Positions 7,249-61,800 are shown, numbered from the whole stretch's first letter. The stretch: DNA of 63,348 bases, filler included, from Collodictyon triciliatum (GCA_043381765.1; 9 parts of 9 records of this genome joined end to end with filler, not necessarily neighbours in it); one strand, 5' to 3'. The notes: a model not told the origin generated them from the letters alone. Numbers and translations: made by a program.

Positions 7249-7348
7249 NNNNNNNNNNNNNNNNNNNNNNNNNNNNNNNNNNNNNNNNNNNNTTAATTAA
7301 TTAANNNNNNNNNNNNNNNNNNNNNNNNNNNNNNNNNNNNNNNNNNNN
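7249..7348. other. Artificial contig-joining linker (N44-TTAATTAATTAA-N44)
   Basis: The same 100-nt linker with stops in all six frames occurs at 14597-14696, 21939-22038, 29282-29381, 36619-36718, 43961-44060, 51295-51394 and 58624-58723. Confidence 0.98.
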
Positions 7349-10171: not shown

Positions 10172-13100
10172 ATGAGATTGAATCCAAAACCTATTGCAAC
10201 CACTCTTCTTTTTGGTCGGTATTAAACAATACGTTAAATTTTTTATGATATTTATCTGTGTCATATACTATTTCTTTATTCGATATAAATTTACATACAT
10301 AAGTATTTTATCACGTAGGATTGACAATATACAGCCAGTTTTTTCGTGCTCAAGGTCAGAATGAATATCTGATAGGCAATATCGATGACGATAGTTTTTT
10401 TAACAGTGTTACTGTTACTCCTGATAATTCAAAAATTGTTTCTGGAGGTTATAGAGCCATCAAAATTTGGAATATTGCTGATCAGATTCTCATTCGCACA
10501 TTGTCAGGTCACAATTATGTTATGACTGTAGCAGTTACTCCTGACGGATCAAAAATTGTTTCGGGAAGCGACGATATTACAATTAAAATTTGGAATCTCT
10601 CCAGTGGAGCATTGATTCGCACATTGACTGGTCATAACGGCTATATAAAAAGTGTTGCAGTTACCCCAGACGGATCAAAAATTATATCTGGAAGTGACGA
10701 TAATACAATAAAATTTTGGAATCTTTCTGATGGAGCGTTGATTCGCACATTGACTGGTCATACTGACGCTGTTAATAGTGTTTCTGTTACTCTTGACGGT
10801 TCAAAAATCGTTTCTGGGAGTGGTGATAAAACAGTCAAAATATGGAATCTCTCCAGTGGAGCATTGATTCGCACACTGACTGGTCATAGCGGCTATGTGA
10901 ATGGTGTTACTGTTACTATTGACGATTCAAAAATCGTTTCTGGGAGTGGTGATAAAACAGTCAAAATATGGAATCTTTCTGATGGAATATTGATTCGCAC
11001 ATTGACTGGTCATACTGACGCTGTTAATAGTGTTTCTGTTACTCGTGATGGTTCAAAAATTGTGTCTGGAAGTGAAGATAAAGCAGTAAAAATATGGAAT
11101 CTTTCTAACGGGGCTTTGATTCGCACATCAAATGGTCATACTTATGGTGTTAATGGTGTTGCTATCACTCCCGATGGAACTAAAACAGTTTCCTCTGGTG
11201 ACGATTACACAATCAAAATATGGGGACTATGTAATTCTGGCTTTTTTTATGATTCTGCTTCGAAATCATGCAAAATATGTGGAACTGGTAGCTATAGTTA
11301 TGGCGGAACCTCTTCTTGCTCTTTATGCCCAGCTGGAACATACAATCCATCTACTGGCTCTACAAGCTCAAGTGCTTGTATTTTATGTCCATCTGGAACT
11401 TACAATCAATTGACTGGAAAATCTACATGTCTTTCATGCCCAGCTGGAACATACAATCCATCTACTGGCTCTACAAGCTCCAGTGCTTGTATTTTATGTG
11501 CGTCTGGAACTTACAATCAATTGACGGGAAAATCTTCATGTATTTCATGTCCAACAGGTACTTACAATCCATCAACTGGATCTACAAGCTCCAGTGCTTG
11601 CCTTTCGTGCGCTGCTGGTACTTATAATCCATCGACTGGCTCTACAAGCCCTACTTCTTGTCTTATGTGCGCTGCTGGTACTTACAATCCATCAACTGGC
11701 TCCACAAGCTCCAGTGCATGCCTTTCATGTCCAAACGGTACTTATAATCCATCAACTGGCTCCACAAGCCCTAATTCTTGTCTTTCGTGCGCTGCCGGTA
11801 CTTATAATCCATCAACTGGCTCCACAAGCCCTACTTCTTGTCTTTCGTGCGCATCTGGCACATATAATCCATCCACTGGGAAATCCTCCTGCCTTTCTTG
11901 TCCAACAGGTACTTATAATCCATCGACTGGTTCCACAAGCTCCAGTGCTTGCCTTTCGTGTGCAGCTGGCACATATAATCCATCCACTGGGAAATCCTCC
12001 TGCCTTTCTTGTCCAACAGGTACTTACAATCCATCCACTGGCTCTACAAGCTCTAGTAATTGCCTTTTATGTGCAACTGGCACTTACAATCCATCAACTG
12101 GTTCCACAAGCTCCAGTGCTTGCCTTTCGTGCGCAGCTGGCACATATAATCCATCCACTGGGAAATCCTCCTGCCTTTCTTGTCCAACAGGTACTTACAA
12201 TCCATCAAGTGGCTCCACAAGCTCTAGTAATTGCCTTTTATGTGAAACTGGCACTTACAATCCATTGACCGGATCTACAAGCTCTAGTGCTTGCCTTTCG
12301 TGTACTGTAGGTACCTATAATCCATCCACTGGGAAATCCTCCTGCCTTTCTTGTCCAACAGGTACTTACAATCCATCAAGTGGCTCCACAAGCTCCAGTG
12401 CTTGCCTTTCGTGCGCGGCTGGCACATATAATCCTTCAACTGGCTCTACAAGCTCTAGTGCTTGTCTTTCATGTGCAACTGGGACGTATAACCCATTAAA
12501 TGGCTCTACAAGCTCTAGTGCTTGTCTTTCATGTGCAGCTGGAACTTACAATCCATCAACTGGCTCTACAAGCTCTAGTGCTTGTATTTTATGTCCAGCT
12601 GGCACATATAATCCATTAAATGGCTCTACAAGCTCTAGTTCTTGTATTTCATGTGAAATAGGAACATATAATCCATCAAGTGGCTCTACAAGCTCAATTT
12701 CCTGTATTTCGTGTGCATCTGGGACCTATAACCCATCAACTGGAAAGTCTTATTGCCTTTCATGTGCAGCTGGTACTTATAATCCATTTATGGGCTCTTC
12801 AAATTCAACTGACTGTATTTTATGCGCAGCTGGCACATACAACCCTTCTACTGGTCAAGAATCATGTCCTTTATGCAAATCTGGTACGTATAATCCCACG
12901 ACAGGACAAAAAGAGTGCATATCGTGTGGAAGTGGCTGGAATGGAGACAAATTGGGGTCGACAACAATCGATGATTGTTTGTGTTTTCGTTCAACCTATT
13001 TAGAATCAAGTTCTAGACAATGCAAAGACTGTCCAAGTGGATTTGTTTGTAACGGAAGCAGCCAACTTAATGTTAAACCTGGATACTGGCAAGCTCCGAG

Positions 13101-43490: not shown

Positions 43491-44585
43491 GGCGAAGTCG
43501 ACTTTCTTGCTTTGTTTCAGGCGTGTGATTAATAGTATTGCTGTCCGCAAATGGATAACGTTGAACTATTTGGGTATGCTCGATTTTTTTCTTTTCAACA
43601 GTTTATTGAGAGAAAACAAAAGCCAAGGAAACCGCCTTCGCCTCTAGGACAACAAATGAGCTGTGGACAAGACAGTGGAAAACCCCGGATTGTGTGGTTG
43701 GATTTTTTGTGTTTTGGGTGGAAAGAAAAAAAGGAAAAGAAAAGGAGAATACGAAGTGAAAAAGGTGTTCTCACACGCAGACTATTCTACCCGAGGTGAA
43801 TCAGCTCCAACGCGATTTCTGGTTGTATTCGAGACTGACAGAAGAGCGGATAAAGTTGTCGGGTCGATAAAAATACGCACATGGCAGTAACTTCTCAAAT
43901 CGATTCCAACAAGACCTTTCAACCATCTATCTCAGACAAGATTTACATCCTTTTTTCATTNNNNNNNNNNNNNNNNNNNNNNNNNNNNNNNNNNNNNNNN
44001 NNNNTTAATTAATTAANNNNNNNNNNNNNNNNNNNNNNNNNNNNNNNNNNNNNNNNNNNNATGGGATGATGGGATGATGGGATGATGGGATGATGGGATG
44101 ATGGGATGATGGGATGATGGGATGATGGGATGATGGGATGATGGGATGATGGGATGATGGGATGATTGGTTGATTGGTTGATTGGACGATTGGACGGGTG
44201 GATGGATGATTGCCGCTGTTTTTTTGTTTTTTTTTAATGATAAGAAACCACGTTACTCAATAAAGCCCAAATTTTTTTTAAAAGGATTAGCATGAGAATA
44301 TAACAAAAAGTTTACCTTCTCACTTCTCTATTTAATGGTTCTAGGTCCAAAATTAATGTTACTTATATAGGTCTGTTGAATTGAAACCCTCGTACAAATA
44401 AATTGAACACCGATGCAAATTGAATAAATGAAAATATAAACATGTGGACAAATGCATAAAGAAATAAGGAGAAATAGATAAATACCTTCCAATTCCACAC
44501 GAAAAATGAGAATGAAATAAAAACCAAAACACAGAATTTATGAGCTAAAAAAATCGTGTCCATAAATATTTGTCAGAATAATTAC

Positions 44586-45105
44586 CTGTTTCGGCTTAAA
44601 GACCCGATAGTTTGTATGAATCACATATATTGAAATTCAAAATTAAATTCTGTTCGCTGCTTCACATAATCAAATCAATAAAGAATCAAATATGAAAGAT
44701 GGTTTTTATTCAACAGATTTATCATTTACAGTCTAAAAAATATCGGAAAGTGAGTAATTCAATATAATTTATATTCCCAAAATAATAAAGTACCATCTGA
44801 ATCTTATTTCGTTTAATGAGTACATCATAAAGAGAATATTTAACTTCATAAGACGAAAATCAAACCATCCGATGCTTTTAGGAGGGTTTAGAACGTAAGA
44901 ATTTTCATAAAAACACCATTTTCTATTCTAATTAAATATTAATTACTGCCTAAATAAAAGTTTGAGGTGAAAAAAAGTTTTTGCGCAGAAAAAATTAAAT
45001 TAAACACACATTCAAGATTTAAAAATATATGATACCAAATTTAGATTATACAAGTCTTACAATGTCAACCTATAAACCAATAATAGGAAAATATTTTGAT
45101 TAGAA

Positions 45106-45202
<97 letters not shown>

Positions 45203-48200
45203 GAAGCACTGACAAGGAAAAAAATTACCAAAATTATCTTGAAAAGATAAATAAGATAATAGTTATTAGTAAAAATGAAAAAACATACATGATTATCAAT
45301 CTTAATTAGTATTTAAAATTATTTACCGCCATCTTTTAAATAAAAGAATTAGTCTGATAGATATTTTAACAAATGAAAAAAAACAAAATTACTTGCTTTT
45401 TTAAAATTTTGGTAAGAAGTTGAAATATATTACTTTATCAGAAAAAATAAGAAAATTTTACATCCTAAAATTGATCGATGTTTAGAAAGACATAGTTGTG
45501 AGAATTTAATGACTTTAGGTCTTACGCCCTAATACAACAGACTCATTTTTAATGAAAATTTATTAACATTGAAAATTTGTAAAAATAATACAAATGATTC
45601 AAATTTAAATCCTCACTCCCTTAATTTCATAGATTGAATAAAATCATATCGAAGTAAAATCAAGAAATTAAGCGTTACATACCAGCTATGAGCGTTTTAG
45701 GTAATTATTAAAATTGTATTAATCATAGCCACTAGTTGGAAAATGTAACAAAAGCGTTACTTTCTAATAAAATGATTAAATTAAGACAAGAGGGTAAACC
45801 ACGAAACTTGGTATTCCAAAAAAATTACTCTCTGATTTTACGATCGCTGGTGTTAGATTTTTACTTGATTTCTAAATTAATAACATGAAATTTACTTGCT
45901 TTATGATTTACAATAGGATATGTAAATAGCCTCACATTTAAATGAAATTCATAAAAAAATTTACATTTTTTTTAAAAAAATCTTACAATCTTGAATTAAA
46001 AATTTGTATAAAAGACGTCAAAAAAGTCAATAAAATATAGAAAAATGTAATTAAATGCCTACATGCTAAAATTAATGTGATTAGATTTAATAATAGTGCA
46101 AAGAATTTTCCTTATTTATTCTGGTTACGTACCCCCTTTAAATATTAATTAAAAATTAATCCAGAATTTAATTATAATATATCTTGATATTTATTTGCCA
46201 AATAATTTATATAGTAAGTTACCATCTTTAAAAAGAAATTTAAACTCAATATAATTCCCATAATAAAATCGTTTTGAATTCTACATTATTCAAAATTATT
46301 ACCTCCTATTAATAATAAAATGATGAGAATTTCATTTACATTTTAAAATGATGCGCAAAAAGTCAAACTTACGATCTAGAAATAAAAAAAATTGAGTTAA
46401 AAGACGAAAACCTATAGCATTCATTTGGTGGAGAACTAACCTTATGGCCCTATAATTATCGATAAAATAAAAAGAAATTAGCCAAATTCAAAAGATGAGT
46501 ATCTTGAATACAAAATCATTATCATCGCCTTAAATTAATGAAATAAATTAATCATGTAATAATCTTATGTACAAGAAATTACCGGCTTATCATTATATTG
46601 TGATATTAAAATCAAATTATTATGAATCGAATAAAGGATAATTTCTTAAATCCAATCAAAATTTAAGAAAGCAGTTTAAAAACTAATTATACCCCCTTTA
46701 ATTTTTAAAATTTTGTTTAGAAGAATTGTATCAGTATACTTTTTTTTTCCTTTATTCGACTTTGTATCAGTATACTTAATTTCTGAAGAATATCAAAATT
46801 TTACTTCCTGACGAATCGTGATACGAAAAAATTCTTTTTAGAAAAAGTTATGTTTGTGATTCTAATTTTCGAAAAAATTATTACCCACTTTATGAAACGG
46901 AGATAGTTCATTATTTAAAAAAATCAAAGCATTTACTCTAATTAACTAAAAAATTTCATACAGCCTTTTGAAAATCAAGTAAAAATCAGTAATTACCCCA
47001 TAATATGCTTTTGAATATTAATGAATACTTACAAACTGATTTTTTTATTTTAATTAAGAAAAATATGTGTCTATGCGTGTCTTATATCAAAAAAGATTAC
47101 CTCCTTACAAAAATTAGGATTTTTAGAATAATTATATAAAATTCAATATCTCGATGATAGAATAAAGACAAACCCACTAATGAACAAAAGAATTGTAAAA
47201 ATTCAAATCAATATATTCCACTGTAATTAATTTTCAAGAAATTTGATTAATATTACTTGCTATTGAACACAAAAATAGGGGTTTTTGTTTTATAAATAAG
47301 TTGTGGATATTTACTCAATTGATTAATGATACATATGTATAAAACTCACGTACTATATTTAATTTTTTAAATAATCAGTGCATTTCAAAAAAGACAAAAA
47401 TTAATGAAATACACTTACATTCTATTTCGATAGAAATTCAAATAATTAATCTAATAAAAGCAAATACTGATCGCATGCATTCATGCAATAATACTATTGA
47501 TACAACCCTTACCCTCTTAAATATAAAAATAAATTACATCCTTGAAACGATTAATGGTATTATAAAAGTCTTTTTACTTCCTGAAAATTATTAAACTTTT
47601 TTAATGATTCTGTTTCCTTAACAATCTTATATGTGATGTTTATTACAACCTAAAAATATTACTAATTTTAATATGATACAATCAATTTGTAATTTATTTT
47701 AACAAGATAATTTTATATTTAAATATATTACACTCTTTATTTAGCGCTATATTAGTTTTAATTCTGATGTTGAATTTAAAAATAAAGACAAAAAACCTCC
47801 TTTTGTAATAGACAGATTGATAATTTTATAATAAATCAAAGTAATGAGTATTAATGACTTCAATTTTTTACACTAATATTACTATATTCGTTGTCTATAT
47901 CAATATTTTATATAATTTTTGCATTATATCCTTACGATCTTTCATGTTATTAACCATATAATAAGTAAAATATACAATATTCATTCGATGCCAAACTATT
48001 TGAAAGTTTCAAAGAAAATACTTGCTTCAGTTTTATTGTTTTATAAAGAAAATTTACTTTTTTCCCTATATTAAATCTTTCCAATTACACGGATTATAAA
48101 AAAGACAAGAATACGTCATACTTACAGTTTTGGTTCCCTCCTATTAGTTTTCATTGTTCAAATCAGTAAAGCTAGTTAAAATATCAATTAATTTTGTTTA

Positions 48201-48992
48201 TTATGAATAATGAAAGAAACGAGATAAATAAAATGGACTTTAAATGATTTATGAAATTTTATATCATGACAAGCTATTACCAACTTATAATGATAATTAA
48301 TTTTGTTAAAATCAAATAGCCAAACGAATATTTAGTCTTTATAAATATGAAATAAAATGATTTAATACAATCTTAAACGGATAAGTATTTTTATTTTTCA
48401 GAATTTTTTTTAATATTTTATTGTTCAGAAACTTTTTATGTTATTCTGAGGATGTTCAATATGATAGCGGTGTTAAAAACATGTTTCATTATTTTCAAAA
48501 GCGACCTACCTGCTTATTCTATTTTTAGATATGAATTAAAAACCTTTACAAATTAGTTTGAAGCTTTATATATTTTATATTAAGTTACCCTCTATTTCAA
48601 TATATAAAATATTTTTAGCATAAAAAAGATACATTTCATCTTACAAATTTTAAAAAATTCTCCCTATTTTTCACTTTTGTAAATAATCACTAATTTTATA
48701 TTAAAATAATATTTAAAATTACAATCTATTTCATAAAAGCGGAGCTTTAGTTAAAATATGCATAAAATTGAAAAAATCATGTTCAATCAGATTTGTCTAC
48801 TCTCTAATTATTAAAAAAATTTTTACATTTAGTTTAAAAAATTATCGCAATAATGCACAAGCATATTAATATAATTGTTTAAAGATTCAAAAATTGCATT
48901 ATTTTGTTCTCTTTATACTTACGTACTAACGAGAGCGTCTTATTAAAAAATTATTACAATAATTTATTTGTTCATAATAATGTACTCACTTC
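44586..48992 (-). CDS. Micro-exon array: about 42 three-nt exons plus 6-15 nt exons forming the 3' part of the TRIM-like gene
   Basis: Regularly spaced AG|NNN|GT units on the minus strand with mostly 60-110 nt introns. None of the triplets is a stop. The array continues from a phase-0 donor at 49056. Confidence 0.8.
46726..46777 (-). mobile_element. Micro-retroposon scar, family A, in a micro-exon intron
   Basis: 16-bp direct repeat TTGTATCAGTATACTT flanks AGTCGAATAAAGGAAAAAAA (minus strand). Confidence 0.8.
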
Positions 48993-49056
48993 CTGAGAGT
49001 GAAATATTGATTCATTTTTTATTTTTCTAGTATGTAATGAATATATTACAATTTAC

Positions 49057-50823
49057 ATCTTGGATGCCCTGTAAAAGACTTTTAAAAAGGTCTCCCATGT
49101 CAAGTTTATCCTCTTCAGTCAATTTATATGTGTCCATTAAGTTCTTCAATCCAAGAACTTGTTTGCGTAAGGTACTATATTCAATTCCCTCCTTGGACTT
49201 TTTCGTGTTTACTAGCTTCAAGCTCTCTTTGATTTCCTTAATCGATTGATTAAATGTTTCCATGGCTTTGATTTTTTCGGAGGAATTTGCTACATTTTCC
49301 GTCATTCTCACACCAGGAACAAAAAAGAATGTTGGCACCGCAGCAGGAAATTTTTCAAATAGCTCAGGAATATCAGGAATCATCTTTTTGGAAAGATTAT
49401 CTGATACGTTTCTTGCTAAAGCGAGCTTAATAGGTGAATTTTGCTCCTTTAAAGTGCTAACTGATTGTTGAATAAGCTCCAAAGAATAGCTTATATGTTT
49501 TTCCATGTATTCCAAGTACTCTTGATAATACGAACAAGGTCTTTGGGCGATGTCATGAAACGTGGTAATCTTTGAAAAGATTTTTAAGATTAGTTGTAAA
49601 TTTTTGATAGAAATTCCTTTTGATTCATATCGTATGGATTTTATATAATGGACGGATTATGAAAGATTATGAGTGGAGTAAAATATGCCATTTTCACCTT
49701 ATCCATGTATGTTTTCTCTTCGTCATCGATCATTTTCCTCGCGAAATTAAACTCCATAGAAGCTTTCTTCTTCAGGTCAAATACGTATTTTTCGATCTAT
49801 TTTACCAATTTTTTTTTATTTCTCTGATAGATTTTACAAGATATGAAAATTGAATGCTCACGTTGGCTCTCTTTTTTTCGATGTTTCTCTTGCAGTTTTC
49901 GATGCTTTTTCCCAATTCTTCGATCTTATTCCTATTGATCTCTAGATGCTGACAGATTTTTTCCGTCCCATTCTCATAGGTTTCGTGGTCGTGTAATTTG
50001 TGCTCTCTCAAATGTGGACCGACACACGCGGCGCATAGAAAAGGATTATCCATGTTTTCCAACGTGCAGAATTCGGTGAATGGGCTTTGGTGTTGAGAGC
50101 AAGCTGTTTCGAAGGCTATCAGATTGCTTCTGACAACATCCCTTGTAACAAAACCAATTTGCATTATGTTGATTTTTCTTTGGAAAATAGAATGAATGGG
50201 TTTCCATTTTTTAAAATATATATATCTTTTTCGTTTCATATTTTCTTATATTGTAGTTATTTATATAATGACCCATCATGGCAAATGTTACTCAAATTGA
50301 AACTGATTGGTATATTATGAGAAAGAATAAAAGTAATTAGAACTATTTTGATATAATCATATTTGAGTAACCTTAGCCTGTGTTTTTTCATCACTTTTGC
50401 TGTTTCATGAGCAGAGGCACACTCTTGACAAATGTGTCCACATCCGTCTTCACAATATTTGGTTGCCTCACTATCAACATGCTCGTCACAATTGAACGAA
50501 AAGAAAGCAGACGCATCCTGTTTTGATTCTCGAAATTCGATCAAATCAAGGACATCTTCTGATTTCGGCATACTTGTTGGATTTCCGGCAGTAAGTCGAA
50601 AGGGAGTATCGCATATGAAGCAAGTCGATTTTGTTCCCTTTCTTATATCCGTGGGGTCTACGTAAGTTCGGCTCATATTCGAAATGCACTCCGTGCAATA
50701 AACGTGTTTGCAAGGAAGGACGCGTGGATCGGAAAACGTCTTCCCACAACCGGGGCATGCACATTCGATTTTCAACCCTTTGTAGGTTTGGCGTCCTCTT
50801 GGACTGAGCAGATGACCGTCCAT
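49057..50823 (-). pseudogene. TRIM/RBCC-like E3 ligase N-terminal part (RING, two B-boxes, coiled coil); this copy carries lesions
   Basis: RING CPGC..PRVLPCKHVYCTEC..CFIC, B-box CDEH..YCEDGCGHICQECASAH..H and second B-box CSQH..FC..LCAAC..H, then coiled coil. There is a frameshift in an A9 run (49809-49817) and an in-frame TAG (49797-49799). Confidence 0.8.
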
Positions 50824-52179
50824 ACCAGTATGTGAAGATTTTTCTAATTGATCATGTATGAAAATTACGTGTTCCCGGTTATTTTTATTCTTGATGTCAT
50901 TTTCTTTATCGATATTCCTTCTCTTTCTCTAACATTTTATTTTTATCATTTAATATTTTATATCTTCTTTTGAATCTATCCTTTTTTTCCTCGTTTATCG
51001 TCCTTTCTTTTCTTTTTTCTTTCTTTCTTTTTTCCTTGTTTATTTTGCTTTATTTTCATTTCTTTCTTTCTTTGTTTTTATTTCTTGTTTTTTTCCTTGT
51101 TTCTTTTATTTTTTTTATTCACGACAGACTTAGCTGTTGGCGCCCGTGCCAACAATCTTTTTCTTTTTCATCTTTGCTTTATTTTCATTTCTTTCCTTTT
51201 CTTTCCTTTTTCTTTCCTTTTTCTTTCCTTTTTCTTTCCTTTTTCTTTCCTTTTTCTTTCCTTTTTCTTTCCTTTTTCTTTCCTTTTTCTTTCCNNNNNN
51301 NNNNNNNNNNNNNNNNNNNNNNNNNNNNNNNNNNNNNNTTAATTAATTAANNNNNNNNNNNNNNNNNNNNNNNNNNNNNNNNNNNNNNNNNNNNTTTCTT
51401 TTCTTTTCTTTTCTTTTCTTTTCTTTTCTTTTCTTTTCTTTTCTTTTCTTTTCTTTTCTTTTCTTTTCTTTTCTTTTCTTTTCTTTTTTCTTTCCCTTTC
51501 TTCGGTTTCATTCAGCCTGTTTATGGATAAACTTCATTACAAAGGTTGTGATGAACTTGGTTTTATCCCTTTCAAGACACAACACTTTTTATACAAAGAA
51601 AGTGTACCAATATATAGCAATTTATTGCACAGACAACCATCGAATTGAATCCAGATTGACAAAAGCAAGTTTTGATGAACTCAGGAAAGAACCTGTATAA
51701 TATAATAGTATGATTAGTGTATATAATAAACTTAGAAAATACTTAATAATCTCATTCTATTCCTGTAATAAATTTATGTTTTATTTTCCATTATGTAATA
51801 TCACTATAATTAGAATTCAAAAAATTCAAAAATTGCGTTGGCCCAGACAGAACCCAGCCTACAAACCTGCCACCAAACATACATTTCAAAAAAGTATACT
51901 ATCCACACTTGCAGCGGCAATCATGTTGTTTGGGGCCGATATGTTGACTTTCAGTCGCAATGGCAAAACAGCTGTCATTTCGAACTCGCCAATCGGCTCT
52001 CAGCATCTTGTCTCAATCACTTATAAAAAACTTGATGTGTTTGTTTGCCAAAATGCGCACATTTTGAAAGTCTCGATAGATGCTTAATTTTACATAAATT
52101 GATTGTATGCAGTTTTTTTTTTAAAAAAAAAATTGGCTGATTGACTTAAGTTTTACTAAAATTGAAAGCTCGGTAGTTC

Positions 52180-54060
52180 TCTAAAGGAAAAAGTAAAACA
52201 AAGACTTTCAGGTGAAGAAAAGAAAATGTCTTGAGTTTGAGAATCTAAAGTCTGTAAAATCACTATCGAAATGTGAAAACATCTCTAAAGTCGATTGTAA
52301 AGAACGCAGATGACTGTAACAAAATCAACGATACGGTTTTATTGTGTCATACCTTGGTTACCGACACTTATCTGTTTGCAAGATGTTACATATTGAAATC
52401 ACAACAACTCCCAACAATCGATGAAATGTTTTTTTTTATACGCTTTGAAGACAGTTGGAATAGTTTCACATGATAGACCCGCATGATTTAAAAAACCAGA
52501 TATGAGTAAAGACATGATGACTTTTTATCTCAATATTTTTCGATTCCTTTTGTCCCGAGAAGAATGCTTTCCGTTGGTTGGACTGTCTCATGTATTACCG
52601 TACTTGGCGAAACAAGTGCTAACAACCTATCGTAACATTAAGGAGCATTTTGTAAAGAGGTTACTGCGCTTTATAAATCAAACAGTTCCTAAAGATGAGG
52701 ATATTACGGAATCTATTAAAAATGCAGAGTTACGAAAGTTAAAAGAAGCCATCGTCAAAAATCTCGAAATACCGGAACAATATAAAGAATGGGCTACAAC
52801 GCATTTGCATCATATCATTCCCAGCGATATTGTAAATGGTATCGAATATTACGCCAAAGGCAATCCAAACAAGTACATTTCATGTCTGATTTACATGAAT
52901 CCCATTTTTGAGGACATTTGAACCAAAAACTGTTTCAACCAATCTCTATAAAAACAAACGATATACCATGTCATATTACTCTAGATACTGCATATTTGAT
53001 AGATGTATTAGTATTTATGAAAAAATAACATTATTACTGAAGAATATATCAGGATGCAAAGAGACATATGGGATTATTTCTTTGAAATGAAGAGGAGGTC
53101 TTTCATCAATGAGACTACACTTTTACATACACGATACAAACAGACAGCTTGGCGGTGTCATTATTGTTTGAAAAGAAAGGTATTTCAAATTCAAGAATCA
53201 AATATAACCAAAAAAAAACCACAAGAATGTGTCTATATAGATGAACTTTCCGAAGAGCAGTTATCATTATTAGCGACAAAAAATAGTTTGAGTGGACGCA
53301 GGTAAGTTTAATTTTGTTTACACGGTAGATGAGAAAGGTAAGAAATTATGTTACACGGCACACCAAAGATGAAATGATAGCAAATCTTTTAAAAATCACA
53401 AAATACTCTTACGAGAAAAAAGAAAAGTACAATGCTTCAGGGATATGCATGGCAACAGGTTTACAAAGTGCTGTTTCTTTTGGTCTCATGACTTTTGAAG
53501 AGAATCAGCGGTTTGAGACATCAAGAGTATCTTAAATCGTTTTAGAGACAGAACGGATTAAACATAATTCATGCACAGTCGATGATGAAAAAATTCGAAA
53601 ATATGTATCTATGAAATCAGGATACCAGATGGAATTTTCCAGATTTTATGGACAAGTAACATTTCGAAAGATGAGATGGAGGCAGAATGTTAATACAAAA
53701 AGAAGTGAACAGTTGTTTATGGACTGAATCGAAAAGACATTAGGCAAGGATATTGTACTGGCGTATGGAGACTGGAACAGAAAATCTCCGATGAACCATT
53801 TTACGCCAACAATTGTAAGCGGGTTACGAAAAATACTATCCAAACGTTTTGGAACAGTTCGTGTAAATGGATTTAGAACCTCCAAGATGTGCTGCAACTG
53901 CGAAAAAGAACTGGAATATATGAAGCCGAAAGGAAATTCAAAAAAATGTGTTTAGATGTCTCATATGTAAAGAATGCAACCGCTCAGAAAGCAAACAAAG
54001 TGTATTCTTGACAAGGGACTATAACAGCGCTAATAATATACCCAAGCAAGTTCTTTTAAT
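52180..54060 (+). mobile_element. Decayed Fanzor (eukaryotic TnpB-related RNA-guided nuclease), Fanzor1-like
   Basis: Across frameshifts: KTSLKSIV, NIKEHFVKRLLRFIN, IQTDSLAVSLLF, IV*VDAGK (RuvC-I), FRKMRWR, LAYGDW, NGFRTSKMCCNC, CKEC and TRDYNSANNI (RuvC-III). Intronless. Confidence 0.85.
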
Positions 54061-55297
54061 CCTTCAAAAAATGCACACACCTTTCCTCAAAAATAAAAAA
54101 ACAGACTGTTGGGTCTTTCCAGGCAGCCTTCCCACTACACGACCATTGTGAAAAAAGTGGCGAGACCTTGGATACAAGCGGAACAGAGAAACCAATCTTT
54201 CGAAAGATGGTATACCCCTTCTGGTATGGAATATAATAAAAATTATTTTTACTTGTCTATTTTTGAGTATTGATGTTTATTTTAGTATTTCATTTATAAT
54301 ATTAATAACAACAATCTCATGATTTTGGGTAATCATGTCATTTAATCGAAACTAATAACTCCGCATTTATAGGCTGTGGACAAAACTTCGGGTTCGTGAA
54401 AGAGCGAAATCATACCAAAATTTATTTCCACAAAAGGACCAACGGATATTTGTTAGAATCTCAACCCCCGGTCGCTCGACCTTGTCATGTGGAAAGAAAC
54501 AAGGCGAAGCGTGTGATCAGTCCAACAAAAGACTCCCAGACGGAAGTGCCCTGAAGAAAAGCATGAAGCCTTCAATAGATGATGCGAACAACCAGACTCA
54601 ATTGTCCATTCATTCCCATATATATCTATAGGATCAGTGGGTTTGTTTTCACTAGTGATTCGGTGAGACTGATCCGATCGCTTCAAACAGGGCCTGATAA
54701 AGCCAGACGCTCAGTAAGTGCCTGCAGCTGTTGTTAGATGGAGGTAGGAAAATGTTACAGGACTTGTTTTTTTTTTTTTTTTTTTTTGTGCCCTGCTATA
54801 TCAAGAGAAGAAATTAACAAACATTCAAAGATTATACCAATAACCAAAACAAACAAGCAAACAGTAAAGAAACAAAGAATTAAAGAAATAAATTGCAAAA
54901 TAAAAATGAAAATAGTTGGATGAATAGATAAATAAAGTAAAACGAGAACACCATCATAATAGTGAACAGTTAAAAATAAGAGATAAAGGGAAATAATTGT
55001 GACTCAATAATTTCATTCATGCGCTCATATTCCCTCCGGTCCAATAATACTAAGACTACCGAGTCAAACTCTACACCACCTTTCTCAATTATAAGTTTTC
55101 TACTTATTCACTCGCCTTCATTCATGTGACATCAATTGTAAATAACTCAGAACTACCTAAATATTTATATCTCAAAGGCTAAATTTAAGACGAAAACATA
55201 ATCATAGAAGAGCAGAGATAATGGGAGCTTATTGGATATTATCTTATAAAATACCCTTTTTTTTTAAAAAAAAAACAAACAAACAAACAAACAAACA

Positions 55298-58426: not shown

Positions 58427-58889
58427 GTATTTTTCTGGAGACAAGTACTTTCAAAGCTTTTAAAGTATTAACTGTGTCGAAAATCGAAGCTTAAATGTTC
58501 ATCTGGCTACATCTGCAATCTATTCTTTTCTTTTCTTTTCTTTTCTTTTCTTTTCTTTTCTTTTCTTTTCTTTTCTTTTCTTTTCTTTTCTTTTCTTTTC
58601 TTTTCTTTTCTTTTCTTTTCTTTNNNNNNNNNNNNNNNNNNNNNNNNNNNNNNNNNNNNNNNNNNNNTTAATTAATTAANNNNNNNNNNNNNNNNNNNNN
58701 NNNNNNNNNNNNNNNNNNNNNNNATAAAAATAAAAATAAAAATAAAAATAAAAATAAAAATAAAAATAAAAATAAAAATAAAAATAAAAATAAAAATAAA
58801 AATAAAAATAAAAATAAAAAAGAAAAGAAAAAAAGAGAAAAGAAAAAGAAAGGCACGATTTTACCACACTTCAATATGTTTCCTTTAGG

Positions 58890-61800
58890 ACTTAACACTA
58901 GTCAGTGCATGCGCCCCTCCTGGTGGAGGACGTCATCCATTGTCTCTCCGCTTTATGAGACATTTTAACATGCTGAACATTCCTACGCCATCTGTGGAAA
59001 GGTTTCGATTTGATGCACTTTATTTTATTGAATGAGATTGATGGCGATCAGTTTATATGATTTCATTTCATTTGGTCATTAATTTTGATGATTATGCTTT
59101 CATTATGTTTACTTGGTGATCGATTAAAGATTAAATAAAACTGAGATTAAAATTGCTCATGATGTAATCATATTATAATTAAATTAGATGAATTGTTAAT
59201 CTAATATTTCTTCTTTTTTTTTTTAAAAAAAAAATAAGTATGAAAACAATATTCTCACAAATCATGGACAATTGGATTCAGTTATTCAACCCCGAATTTA
59301 AACATTTAAGTAAGATATCATATACAATCATACTCGGCCATTAAATTATGAGTTCATGTTGACATCTATCAGTTCAAAAGATCAAAATATTTAGTCTTTT
59401 GTATTAATTGCAGGTGAAGCTATCGTTGATTCATCCATTTCATTATTTACGAGAATCTGCAACGATCTTCGACCAACACCAGCCAAGTCCCATTATACAT
59501 TCAACTTGAGAGATCTTTCCAAAGTGTTCCAAGGGGTTTATATTACTCTCTTATTCGTTTTTCTATTTCCACATATTGGTTGATATAAAGTGCCAAATAT
59601 AACTCTCATTCGAACCTCCCTTCAGAGAGGATTGGTCCTCAAATGAAACTTATACGTAACTTTTTTATGATAGGTGATGCAAATCAAATCAATCACCGTG
59701 ACTGAGAAGGGAACGATTATTCGCCTTTGGATTCATGAGACCACTCGTATATTCTGTGATAGACTCACCACGAACGACGACCGCCGCTATTTCAGAGAGC
59801 AGGTAAGCCATTCGCATCTTAAATTTTATTCATATATTATAACTATGGCAGATATACATCTATTCTATTCCCATACGAAAGAGAGTCCAGAAGAAAAAAT
59901 ATCAACTGAGTTCATAAACTGATTCCGTGGTCTCTGTTCCATCGTGAATACTAGATATCGGACTTGCTATTAAAGTATTTCGATATGCGTATGGATCCAG
60001 AACGAATGGCAAATAGCGACCCTATACTATTTGGAGATTATTTCATGAGAGGTGTCACCGGTGATGCTCGCATGTATACGGAAGTACCGACTCTATCGAA
60101 GACAGGTTTATCTTTGCAATATTTTTGATATTTGTTTGCCTTAGCAATATTCTTAAACTGCATCATAAAAACTCATCAAATCATCGCACGATTTTTTTTT
60201 CTTAAAAACACATAAAATTCAAACAAAAACTGTTTTAGCCAAACTTTTTGAGGACTACCAAGAGGAATACAACATCAATTCACAAAAGGAGATTCAGATG
60301 GTATTTTTTCGAGATGCTGTTGAACATTTATCTAGAATTTGCCGTATCATACGCCAACCAAGAGGAAATGCTTTGCTTGTTGGCGTCTCTGGTGTTGGAA
60401 AACAGTCACTAACTCGTTTGGCCTGCACTATATCGGAGTATAAATGCTTCCAGATTCAGTTGACCAAGGTTGCTATCAACCAAAATACTCACCTTTATTT
60501 AAAAGTTCACAACCCCGCCCCCCTCCCCCTCCCCTCCTTGCTATCCATGGCACATGTCATTACACAAGATATTTATTTAAACTGAAAGAAAATCCTCTAA
60601 CTTTATTTACATATCTATTTATGAGTCGATTCTTGATACCATTTTCCCCCTTTCTCTCTTTTACATAATCACACTGTAGTCTTATGGAGCGAATGAATTT
60701 CACGAGGACTTGAAAAAGATGTATCTTACGGCAGGTGTAGATGGCCATCCCATAGTTTTCCTCCTTTCAGATACCCAAATTGTGCACGAAACTTTCCTCG
60801 AGGACGTAAATAATATCCTGAATTCCGGTGAAGTTCCTAATCTATTTGAGGCGGATGAATATGAAAAGGTATTGTCATCACCTAATCACTCTATTTTTAT
60901 CTTTTATTCGAAATCATTCAATCACTCCATAATTGTAACTATCGTATGATAATTTTATTTTTCATTTAGGTTTTGAATGACATGAGGCCTCACGTGAAGA
61001 CTATGGGGTTATCCGAATCGAGAGAAAATCTGTGGAGCCATTTCATCCATAGAGTACAGGATAATTTACACGTAGTGCTATGCATGTCACCTGTCGGAGA
61101 TAATTTTAGAAGCCGGTTTGAAATACTTTTATTTCATTTTTTAAAGAAAAGAAGAAAAGAACGCACTCATTGATATTACTAACCAATTCAACTCTTAACT
61201 CCGATTTGATATAAATCCTGATATCCGAATTAAAAATAAAGATAAAATTTTAACCCATTCCAATTATTTGTTAGTTGTCGCATGTTTCCTTCACTAGTGA
61301 ATTGCTGTACTATCGATTGGTTCGAAGTGTGGCCTTTGGATGCATTGCAGAGTGTTTCAAAACAACTACTTTCCAAAATACCTCTTTCGGTTTGTATTCC
61401 TAATTATACTTACTCTATGTTTACACGTATTATCCCTCTTCAATAGTTTGCAGTTTCCTCGGCTTTGTTTTCTCTCAATAAAGTGTTGAAAAGAAACCAA
61501 AAAAAAAAATCCCTCTTCAATAGTTTACCGAAACTCTTAATTCTATCATCGCCTTTGCCAATTTATTTCCTTCTAGATAAACGAACTGGACATTATTGAG
61601 AATGTCAGCAACATGTGCGTTGAAATACATTCAAATGTGGCCACGGCTTCGGACGAATTTTATCAAGTAAGTTTAATTTTGCGCATGAATTTCCATACTC
61701 ATCCAAAATGTGCTAAATTTCAAACCGCAGATTATAATATATATGTAAAACAATTTAAAATACTAGGGTGCCATAAACTAATACACTTTTGCGTATCCGT

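Follow-up and report, generated by a model that had tools for sequence, protein, structure and literature searches.

We examined a window of 63,348 nucleotides (nt) of DNA from Collodictyon triciliatum (GCA_043381765.1; parts of nine records of the genome joined end to end with filler), one piece of which carries on its minus strand a gene for a TRIM-like protein. The gene starts with four ordinary exons, and the tract that follows them (44586-49057) is very probably its downstream part, consisting of 50 in-frame, symmetric micro-exons that are spliced constitutively, recognized by intron definition and joined with no fixed order of intron removal. The number of codons in most of these exons is one. 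All features of the gene described below lie on the minus strand and are numbered from the first letter of the window.

The predicted structure was assessed with transcript contigs. Fourteen sequencing runs were listed for the ordinary exons, two of which hold more than half of the sampled words. Contigs from four runs (X1 to X4) were aligned on 44200-50980; X1 and X2 are two samples of one study, X3 and X4 are metatranscriptomes from two further studies, and the runs with parts of the gene come from freshwater or lake metatranscriptomics. We took the X1 and X2 contigs to be complementary DNA (cDNA) because they carry three GT..AG joints, a 23-letter leader that is not part of the window, and a recurring adaptor-like loose end, which presumably derives from something like a template-switch oligonucleotide. 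The joined micro-exon string was built from the window by a script, its reverse complements were matched to the loose ends of the contigs, and the consensus of these ends was compared over up to 30 letters per end.

Spliced X1 and X2 contigs departed from the genome at 49056, 48126, 47255, and 45227 and went on with letters of the predicted chain. The match was 30 of 30 letters in X2 and 26 of 26 in X1 at 49056, 14 of 14 in X1 at 48126, 30 of 30 in X1 at 47255, and 10 of 10 in X1 and 17 of 18 in X2 at 45227. Across the six contig ends, 127 of 128 letters agreed, and the lone mismatch is a single-nucleotide polymorphism at 44869 that is synonymous in frame. The mRNA joins the micro-exon codons in the order and frame that were predicted, and the open reading frame (ORF) continues letter for letter after the final GIQD of ordinary exon 4, as an earlier note, made from the sequence alone, had proposed. 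X3 and X4 confirmed the junctions between ordinary exons 2 and 3 and between exons 3 and 4, short of the array. Pieces of 17-26 letters from X4 within the array, together with a 33-letter joint lying between, were set aside as chance matches from other organisms. X1 and X2 gave no cover over 44200-44653 and 48740-48966, from which we drew no inference.

The ORF-style call for this gene in the database (P0004) runs into the intron after exon 4 and ends at a false stop at 49027, as it would if the gene stopped there and the array were a set of unspliced chance pseudo-sites. The earlier note had itself named transcripts that end at this stop or bypass the array as fatal to its reading. However, the spliced contigs of both samples leave the genome at 49057 carrying the chain, and the shuffle and spacer controls given below also contradict chance pseudo-sites, which makes that explanation barely credible.

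Seventeen one-codon exons (1-5, 7, 8, 10-18, and 46) and two 9-nt exons (6 and 45) were verified in full by RNA, as were parts of exons 9, 44, and 47. Exons 1 to 5 (48990-48992, 48923-48925, 48801-48803, 48723-48725, and 48589-48591), all nine letters of exon 6 (48510-48518), and exon 7 (48369-48371) were found in both X1 and X2, and exon 8 (48281-48283) in X2. The first letter of the 15-nt exon 9 (48126-48140) was seen in X2, and its last three letters and the use of its donor in X1. Two X1 contig ends contain exons 10 to 14 (48022-48024, 47936-47938, 47797-47799 with the weak donor GTTTTT, 47732-47734, and 47647-47649), and one contains exons 15 to 18 (47578-47580, 47513-47515, 47419-47421, and 47350-47352). 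The verified exons thus run consecutively from 1 to 8 and from 10 to 18, with at least nine one-codon exons in a row. Toward the other end of the array, X1 and X2 aligned to 45227 and were then spliced, which documents donor use for exon 44 (9 nt, 45229-45237). Exons 45 (45061-45069) and 46 (44947-44949) were present in both runs, and the first eight letters of exon 47 (9 nt, 44866-44874), with the synonymous difference at 44869, in X2.

The remaining exons were predicted from the sequence and, where no length is given, are 3 nt long. They begin with exon 19 (47257-47259), where the chain of the only X1 contig that extends this far joins 47255 instead, and exons 20 to 27 (47174-47176, 47101-47103, 47033-47035, 46962-46964, 46885-46887, 46805-46807, 46693-46695, and 46583-46585). 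After the 9-nt exon 28 (46441-46449), exons 29 to 35 are located at 46373-46375, 46303-46305, 46223-46225, 46133-46135, 46063-46065, 45987-45989, and 45896-45898, and exons 36 to 42 at 45829-45831, 45761-45763, 45683-45685, 45617-45619, 45526-45528, 45462-45464, and 45393-45395; the 6-nt exon 43 (45327-45332) follows. Beyond the RNA-supported exons 44 to 47, we predicted exons 48 (44794-44796), 49 (44730-44732), and the 9-nt exon 50 (44586-44594), the last one that could be placed. The 3' remainder of the contig piece (44061-44585) ends in a (ATGGGATG)n microsatellite.

Splice-site signal and anatomy of the array

The pattern AG-N3-GT occurs 48 times on the minus strand of 44586-49057, compared with 11 times on the plus strand of the same tract and a mean of 7.2 (standard deviation 2.5, maximum 17) in 1000 dinucleotide-preserving shuffles. 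Spacers of 0, 1, 2, 4, 5, 6, 8, and 9 letters on the minus strand gave 0-10 matches each, and the 18 matches with a 7-letter spacer arise because GTAAGT donors echo the signal. The extended pattern AG-N3-GTA was observed 40 times (2.3 +/- 1.5 in shuffles). The 48 matches comprise 42 exons of the chain, the 3' end of one 9-nt exon, and five excluded matches (48986, 48271, 47623, 47538, and 45539), each 4-45 nt from a neighboring site; the RNA chain lacks four of these five. Two other minus-strand hot spots of AG-N3-GT in the window (11-13 kb and 14-15 kb) were considered as similar arrays and rejected, since they turned out to be a tandem repeat in the coding sequence of a gene on the plus strand and a microsatellite, (TGAG)n.

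These counts bear out the comparison of spacers, strands, and shuffles that the earlier note had put forward as a check, and every one of its 3-nt units is present at its position. Its list of exons was corrected in two places: the exon at 48510 is 9 nt long because the RNA uses an upstream AG as acceptor, and the 3-nt exon at 48022-48024 had been overlooked. The two properties that it attributed to the triplets, freedom from stop codons and a GC content above that of the flanks, also held.

The curated chain is composed of 42 micro-exons of 3 nt, six of 9 nt, one of 6 nt, and one of 15 nt, and totals 201 nt, or 67 stop-free codons. All eight micro-exons longer than 3 nt are likewise multiples of three, for which the chance would be (1/3)^8 if frame were irrelevant, but five of the eight lengths were frame-guided choices. 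An unconstrained splice-site chain was tried and rejected, since it overfits and its exons of 1-44 nt are contradicted by the RNA, and the curated chain was preferred. The GC content is 0.438 in the micro-exons and 0.404 in the ordinary exons, compared to 0.208 in the array introns and 0.239 in the ordinary introns. The codon log-odds follow the same division (0.62 for the tail encoded by the array, 0.87 for the ordinary exons, and -0.95 for intron 3-mers).

Donors of the form GT[AG]A follow 36 of the 50 micro-exons. A G at position -1 precedes 9 of the 14 weaker donors and 11 of the 36 others (one-sided P = 0.03); the weak donors are compensated by G at -1. The AG-free zone before the acceptors has a median of 42.5 nt, compared with 19.8 nt in shuffles (maximum 30.5 of 200), and AG is depleted within the array introns (83 occurrences vs 124.5 +/- 8.3 in shuffles). 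Between the window and the X1 and X2 contigs, the array differs by 27 substitutions and 10 indels, none of which affects an AG or donor positions +1 to +6. Two of the substitutions fall in micro-exons, namely the synonymous one at 44869 and one at 45395, the first base of the one-codon exon 42, which changes the residue in both X1 and X2.

The array introns are AT-rich and 60-159 nt long (median 75 nt). Their lengths are sharply cut off below 60 nt, and in 29 of the 50 introns they do not exceed 80 nt. The longest one (159 nt, before exon 45) holds an (AAT)32 microsatellite of 97 nt (45106-45202), and what is left after its subtraction is 62 nt, near the shared floor. These lengths speak against the view that a 4.5-kb AT-rich spacer is removed by short-intron splicing with one-codon exons as the cheapest landing sites and the peptide as a by-product. 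Landing sites would be expected to lie maximally far apart, yet 29 introns of 60-80 nt keep them close, the longest intron owes 97 nt to its microsatellite, the same gene splices an intron of 230 nt, and the micro-exon composition is coding-like at all three positions. The predominance of 3 nt (42 of 50), the smallest frame-neutral exon length, fits that view, as do the lack of depletion of substitutions in the peptide and the tail's lack of a domain or homolog (the joined tail, compared by local blastp with one distant TRIM-NHL-like protein, showed no match, best E = 15). On balance, we consider it rather improbable.

We also asked of the introns themselves whether they could be the product, in a host gene for small RNAs such as mirtrons or small nucleolar RNAs whose exons have been minimized. 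The size range of mirtrons includes introns of 60-100 nt, and TGAT is somewhat enriched in the array introns (35 occurrences vs 22.6 +/- 4.1). However, the introns fold no better than shuffles (mean z +0.34, one of 50 below -2, and four of 50 with paired ends), no Rfam match at E <= 1 was obtained on either strand of the contig, the introns lack mutual similarity, and the exon lengths in multiples of three would be left unexplained. A role as a small-RNA host is highly improbable. The mean best intron-intron similarity was 23.8 bits, within the range of shuffled introns (23.0-23.9 bits); the introns are therefore no more alike than shuffles and bear no sign of having arisen by recent tandem duplication or from an introner family, and an origin of the array by either route was rejected.

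Order of intron removal and completeness of splicing

Partly spliced contigs of both polarities were observed. In the X1 contig that departs at 47255, the upstream chain is fully spliced and the downstream part unspliced, and the contigs at 48126 and 45227 keep 350-750 nt of unspliced sequence upstream while the micro-exons downstream are spliced. The intron after exon 46 (44947) is retained in X1 and removed in X2. Therefore, there is no obligatory 5'-to-3' ratchet, and the array is not processed by strict recursive splicing.

The exon/intron contrast in GC content and the long AG-free zone before each acceptor suggest that each array intron would be recognized separately, by intron definition. 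U1 pairs with donor positions -3 to +6. Since each donor lies only 3 nt behind an acceptor, this footprint abuts the preceding AG, so that neighboring introns are probably not engaged together; they would be mutually exclusive and removed in turn, presumably with no fixed 5'-to-3' order along the array.

In one X1 contig, the chain continues at 47255 instead of 47259, the start of exon 19, and X1 also has a 1-nt insertion 3 nt before the exon 19 acceptor. The joint appears to use a cryptic AG (47256-47257) that arises where the final base of exon 19 meets the G of its donor. In this product, seen in one contig at low depth, the donor of exon 19 is destroyed, the downstream introns are kept, and a stop follows at once; we read it as a splicing error. 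Such dead ends would be expected if fifty serial introns acted as a throttle on expression, slow and error-prone to remove, with output set by the completion of splicing and mis-spliced transcripts degraded. Besides the product at 47255 and the contig that keeps the intron after 44947, 26 of the 30 bins into which the stretch was divided have cover in X1 from contigs that are unspliced or spliced in part, and the AT-rich array introns, in which there are no long ORFs, would give early stops. Contig depth is no measure of the proportions of transcript species, however, and DNA carry-over or internal priming may account for the cover of the introns, so that we hold a throttle to be quite unlikely.

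Contig ends overlap at 49056 (X1 and X2) and over 48022-47647 (two X1 ends), and at both places they show the same chain with no skipped exon. The chain is constitutive in the transcripts seen; contigs drop rare isoforms, which makes this identity weak evidence against skipping. The overlaps bear on the possibility that one-codon exons are skipped in many combinations, giving TRIM-like proteins that vary by single residues in the style of micro-exon genes. The C-terminal parts of TRIM proteins usually select substrates. Because all exons are symmetric (multiples of three in phase 0) and stop-free, any skip would keep the frame, a logic that is described for flatworm micro-exon genes in the accessible portions of two papers (PMC7653826, PMC4350168). 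Apart from the overlapping ends without a skipped form, this diversification is disfavored by a tail that matches no binding domain that could be tested and by a protein that has no signal peptide on inspection, unlike the products of micro-exon genes; we regard it as possible but doubtful. A codon-by-codon module, in which each tail residue is independently includable and skipping yields a somatic repertoire of intracellular-receptor variants, seems unlikely.

The preferred reading, a constitutive chain of micro-exons, suggests that the tail (at least 67 residues) would be a linker leading to a C-terminal part beyond the contig end at 44061, because the frame is kept down to the last placeable exon. 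The architecture may represent an extreme micro-exon-gene design that grew by the addition of minimal exon-plus-intron units; we prefer this to the cutting up of one long intron because the introns are near the minimum and the same gene splices a 230-nt intron. The more far-reaching proposals of the earlier note fared less well than its exon map. The gene may go on past the contig end, so that the array may not encode the C-terminus; single-residue skipping, combinatorial diversification, and the suggested substrate-binding and immune roles gained no support, and the overlapping ends are identical. The approximately 67 residues match no domain that could be tested.

Several points weigh against the constitutive-chain reading. 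The chain is known from one study, represented by two samples, and the run label of X1 and X2 ('RNA?') is a guess, their cDNA nature resting on the joints, the leader, and the adaptor-like ends. Exons 19-43 and 48-50, or 28 of the 50, are predictions that assume lengths in multiples of three and no stop, and the unconstrained splice-site chain picks other lengths for 17 of 51 exons. Neither a stop codon nor a terminal exon nor a poly(A) site turned up before the end of the contig at 44061. As no relative of the tail could be detected, a coding constraint on the peptide is conjectural, and the two of 27 substitutions that fall in micro-exons, with about 1.2 expected, show no depletion, the numbers being too small for a test of selection. 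Finally, one contig, at 47255, is a dead-end product, and unspliced material is abundant.

The host gene and the rest of the window

The gene is borne by a contig piece of 7234 nt (44061-51294) with microsatellites at both ends and N44-TTAATTAATTAA-N44 spacers on both sides. Spacers of this kind, two runs of 44 N around a 12-letter linker with stops in all frames, recur every ~7.3 kb (7249-7348, 14597-14696, 21939-22038, 29282-29381, 36619-36718, 43961-44060, 51295-51394, and 58624-58723) and separate pieces of 7229-7248 nt, with microsatellites at the ends of many of them. The window has the look of a fragmented assembly whose contigs were sorted by size and strung together. Gene neighborhood across the spacers is therefore meaningless, and the MORN-repeat and dynein genes are not demonstrated neighbors of the TRIM-like gene.

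The four ordinary exons, counted from the ATG at 50821-50823, amount to 448 stop-free codons and are separated by three GT..AG introns that follow from the RNA joints (50142-50371, 230 nt; 49797-49861; and 49570-49697). The coding part of exon 1 (50372-50823, with its joints in RNA) encodes a RING finger and a B-box-like zinc finger. Exon 2 (49862-50141) holds a second Cys/His-rich B-box-like stretch and the beginning of a helical region; its joints were seen in X1 and X2, and its junction with exon 3 also in X3. The joints of the 99-nt exon 3 (49698-49796) were found in X1, X2, and X4. Exon 4 (49057-49569) comprises 171 codons of helical, coiled-coil-like character and ends with GIQD in phase 0 at a donor GT at 49055-49056.

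The RING finger in exon 1 was recognized by the Pfam families zf-RING_UBOX (PF13445, 32 bits, cut-off 25.2) and zf-C3HC4 (PF00097, 26.6 bits, cut-off 21), and zf-B_box (PF00643) scored 19.3 bits, below its cut-off of 24.1. The best sequence matches in PDB are all TRIM RINGs (TRIM69, TRIM2, TRIM34, and TRIM21), and the alignment to the RING-B-box chain of TRIM21 (5olm) spans residues 29-148 with E = 0.003. A Pfam search with exon 2 returned no match, and the coiled-coil-like exon 4 gave weak, sub-threshold Pfam matches to helical families. One longer database relative was obtained, an 812-residue RING/B-box/NHL protein with 26% identity, and the nearest ESM Atlas clusters are TRIM2/3-like and mostly from molluscs, which we treat as leads rather than proof. 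For exon 4, the search of 1.84 billion representatives and of a word-indexed set of 5.8 billion, the latter for sequences of near as well as longer length, recovered the window's own ORF only. Among metagenome contigs, the exon 1 protein gave 31 and the exon 4 protein 188 pattern matches as candidate related loci, none of which was confirmed. No NHL, filamin, or B30.2 domain was detected on the contig piece 44061-51294. By inspection, the region after the ATG at 50823 is polar and has no hydrophobic stretch or signal peptide, the RING finger coming immediately after it.

Upstream of the start codon, the same 23-letter leader joins exon 1 at a 5' junction (50843-50847) in both X1 and X2. The loose ends of X1 and X2 lie at 50847, the cut being ambiguous by four letters, and the joint is at an acceptor AG (50844-50845), 20 nt before the start codon. 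The leader has no match in the window with up to three mismatches, and its string was not found in the literature search. It represents either a leader added by trans-splicing or an exon that lies upstream, outside the contig. According to the accessible part of one report (PMC1925144), the spliced leader of bdelloid rotifers is 23 nt long and their introns measure about 60 nt; a literature search on micro-exons in rotifers or bdelloids gave nothing relevant among the matches listed.

Other pieces of the window carry genes of different kinds. Two long intronless ORFs, one on the plus strand (10303-14466, 1387 amino acids with WD40 repeats, about 35 Cys-rich repeats, and a multi-pass hydrophobic tail) and one on the minus strand (15892-17943, 683 amino acids with WD40 and an FG-GAP-like part), have bacterial WD40 clusters as their nearest look-alikes, and the 683-residue ORF was matched in ESM Atlas by bacterial-like WD40/FG-GAP clusters only. 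They may be horizontally acquired genes or may come from another organism in the assembly. A string of plus-strand ORFs with paired CxxC motifs is present at 52487-54151; an initial impression of a TnpB/Fanzor-type nuclease there was dropped, as Pfam searches on four fragments gave it no support. A dynein heavy-chain fragment on the plus strand (60169-60585; Pfam AAA_8, 79.6 bits) lies on a different piece from the TRIM-like gene.

Relation to known systems and significance

The protein resembles the TRIM/RBCC E3 ligases, most closely the TRIM2/3/71-like (TRIM-NHL) group, in its N-terminal RING, Cys/His-rich B-box-like stretches, and helical region. It differs from them in that the B-box stays below the Pfam cut-off, exon 4 has no relative among 1.84 billion representatives, and NHL, filamin, and B30.2 domains are missing from the contig.

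In the recursive splicing of Drosophila long introns, ratchet points are zero-length, with AG directly followed by GT; they leave nothing in the mRNA, and the donor exists only after the upstream step. The array shares with them the piecewise removal of a long non-coding stretch at places where an acceptor closely precedes a donor. In contrast to ratchet points, every site of the array leaves at least 3 nt in the mRNA, the pre-mRNA already contains the whole donor, and removal can begin with downstream introns, so that neither an empty mRNA joint nor strict 5'-to-3' removal was found; the stretch is also only 4.5 kb long.

Micro-exon genes are the closest counterpart. An operational definition used for tapeworm and fluke genomes, as given in the accessible text, requires seven or more exons, of which micro-exons of less than 70 nt and divisible by three make up half or more, with four or more in succession (PMC7653826). 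The gene falls under this definition: it has four ordinary exons and 50 micro-exons of 3, 6, 9, or 15 nt, with verified runs of exons 1-8 and 10-18; the 19 fully and three partly RNA-verified micro-exons are all multiples of three, as is assumed for the other 28. The portions of the literature available describe products of micro-exon genes as having a signal peptide and being secreted or membrane-anchored (PMC4350168), of which the N-terminus, judged by inspection, showed no sign, and attribute protein variants to alternative splicing of the micro-exons (PMC4350168, PMC7653826). These genes are said to 'appear to be restricted to platyhelminths', and a composite gene, VAL-6, is reported to have a micro-exon-gene-like portion (PMC4350168). 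Like the flatworm genes (Schistosoma, Echinococcus, and Hymenolepis), the array places runs of tiny symmetric exons as coding sequence between ordinary exons. Unlike them, 42 of its 50 exons are single codons, the run extends to 50, the introns are near-minimal, and there is no alternative splicing among the contigs.

Isolated 3-nt micro-exons are on record for Drosophila homothorax (micro-Ex8) and human MAP4K5 and RPS24, in the parts of the reports that could be accessed (PMC7392893, PMC8632122, PMC12207440). They resemble the array in that a single codon between AG and GT is spliced into the mRNA. As far as those texts go, they stand alone or are one of three neighboring micro-exons, are usually alternative, and are flanked by ordinary or long introns, in contrast to the at least nine consecutive RNA-verified and 42 predicted one-codon exons of this one gene. 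The literature search, which covered accessible text outside supplementary files, returned no array of one-codon exons and only single 3-nt exons (hth, MAP4K5, RPS24, and PICALM); a precedent may exist in small print. Measured against that accessible literature, the array is of the micro-exon-gene kind at its extreme and exceeds the described runs of tiny exons.

At least nine consecutive RNA-verified 3-nt exons push the known limits of exon size and density. Exon definition is ruled out because fifty pairs of splice sites sit 3 nt apart, and the question is raised how U1 and the factors of the 3' splice site manage on a shared site where binding of one prevents full occupancy by the other. 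As a natural substrate, the locus lends itself to studies of the order in which introns are removed, the deposition of exon-junction complexes at junctions 3 nt apart, and the fidelity of splicing: by simple arithmetic, a fidelity of 0.98 per step would leave about a third of the transcripts intact. Similar arrays may be hidden in other genomes, because standard gene finders and RNA-seq aligners are blind to such exons. Skipping of the one-codon exons, should it take place, would offer a new means of varying a protein one residue at a time, and a codon-by-codon diversification by splicing, if true, would be finer-grained than that of Dscam or of the flatworm micro-exon genes.

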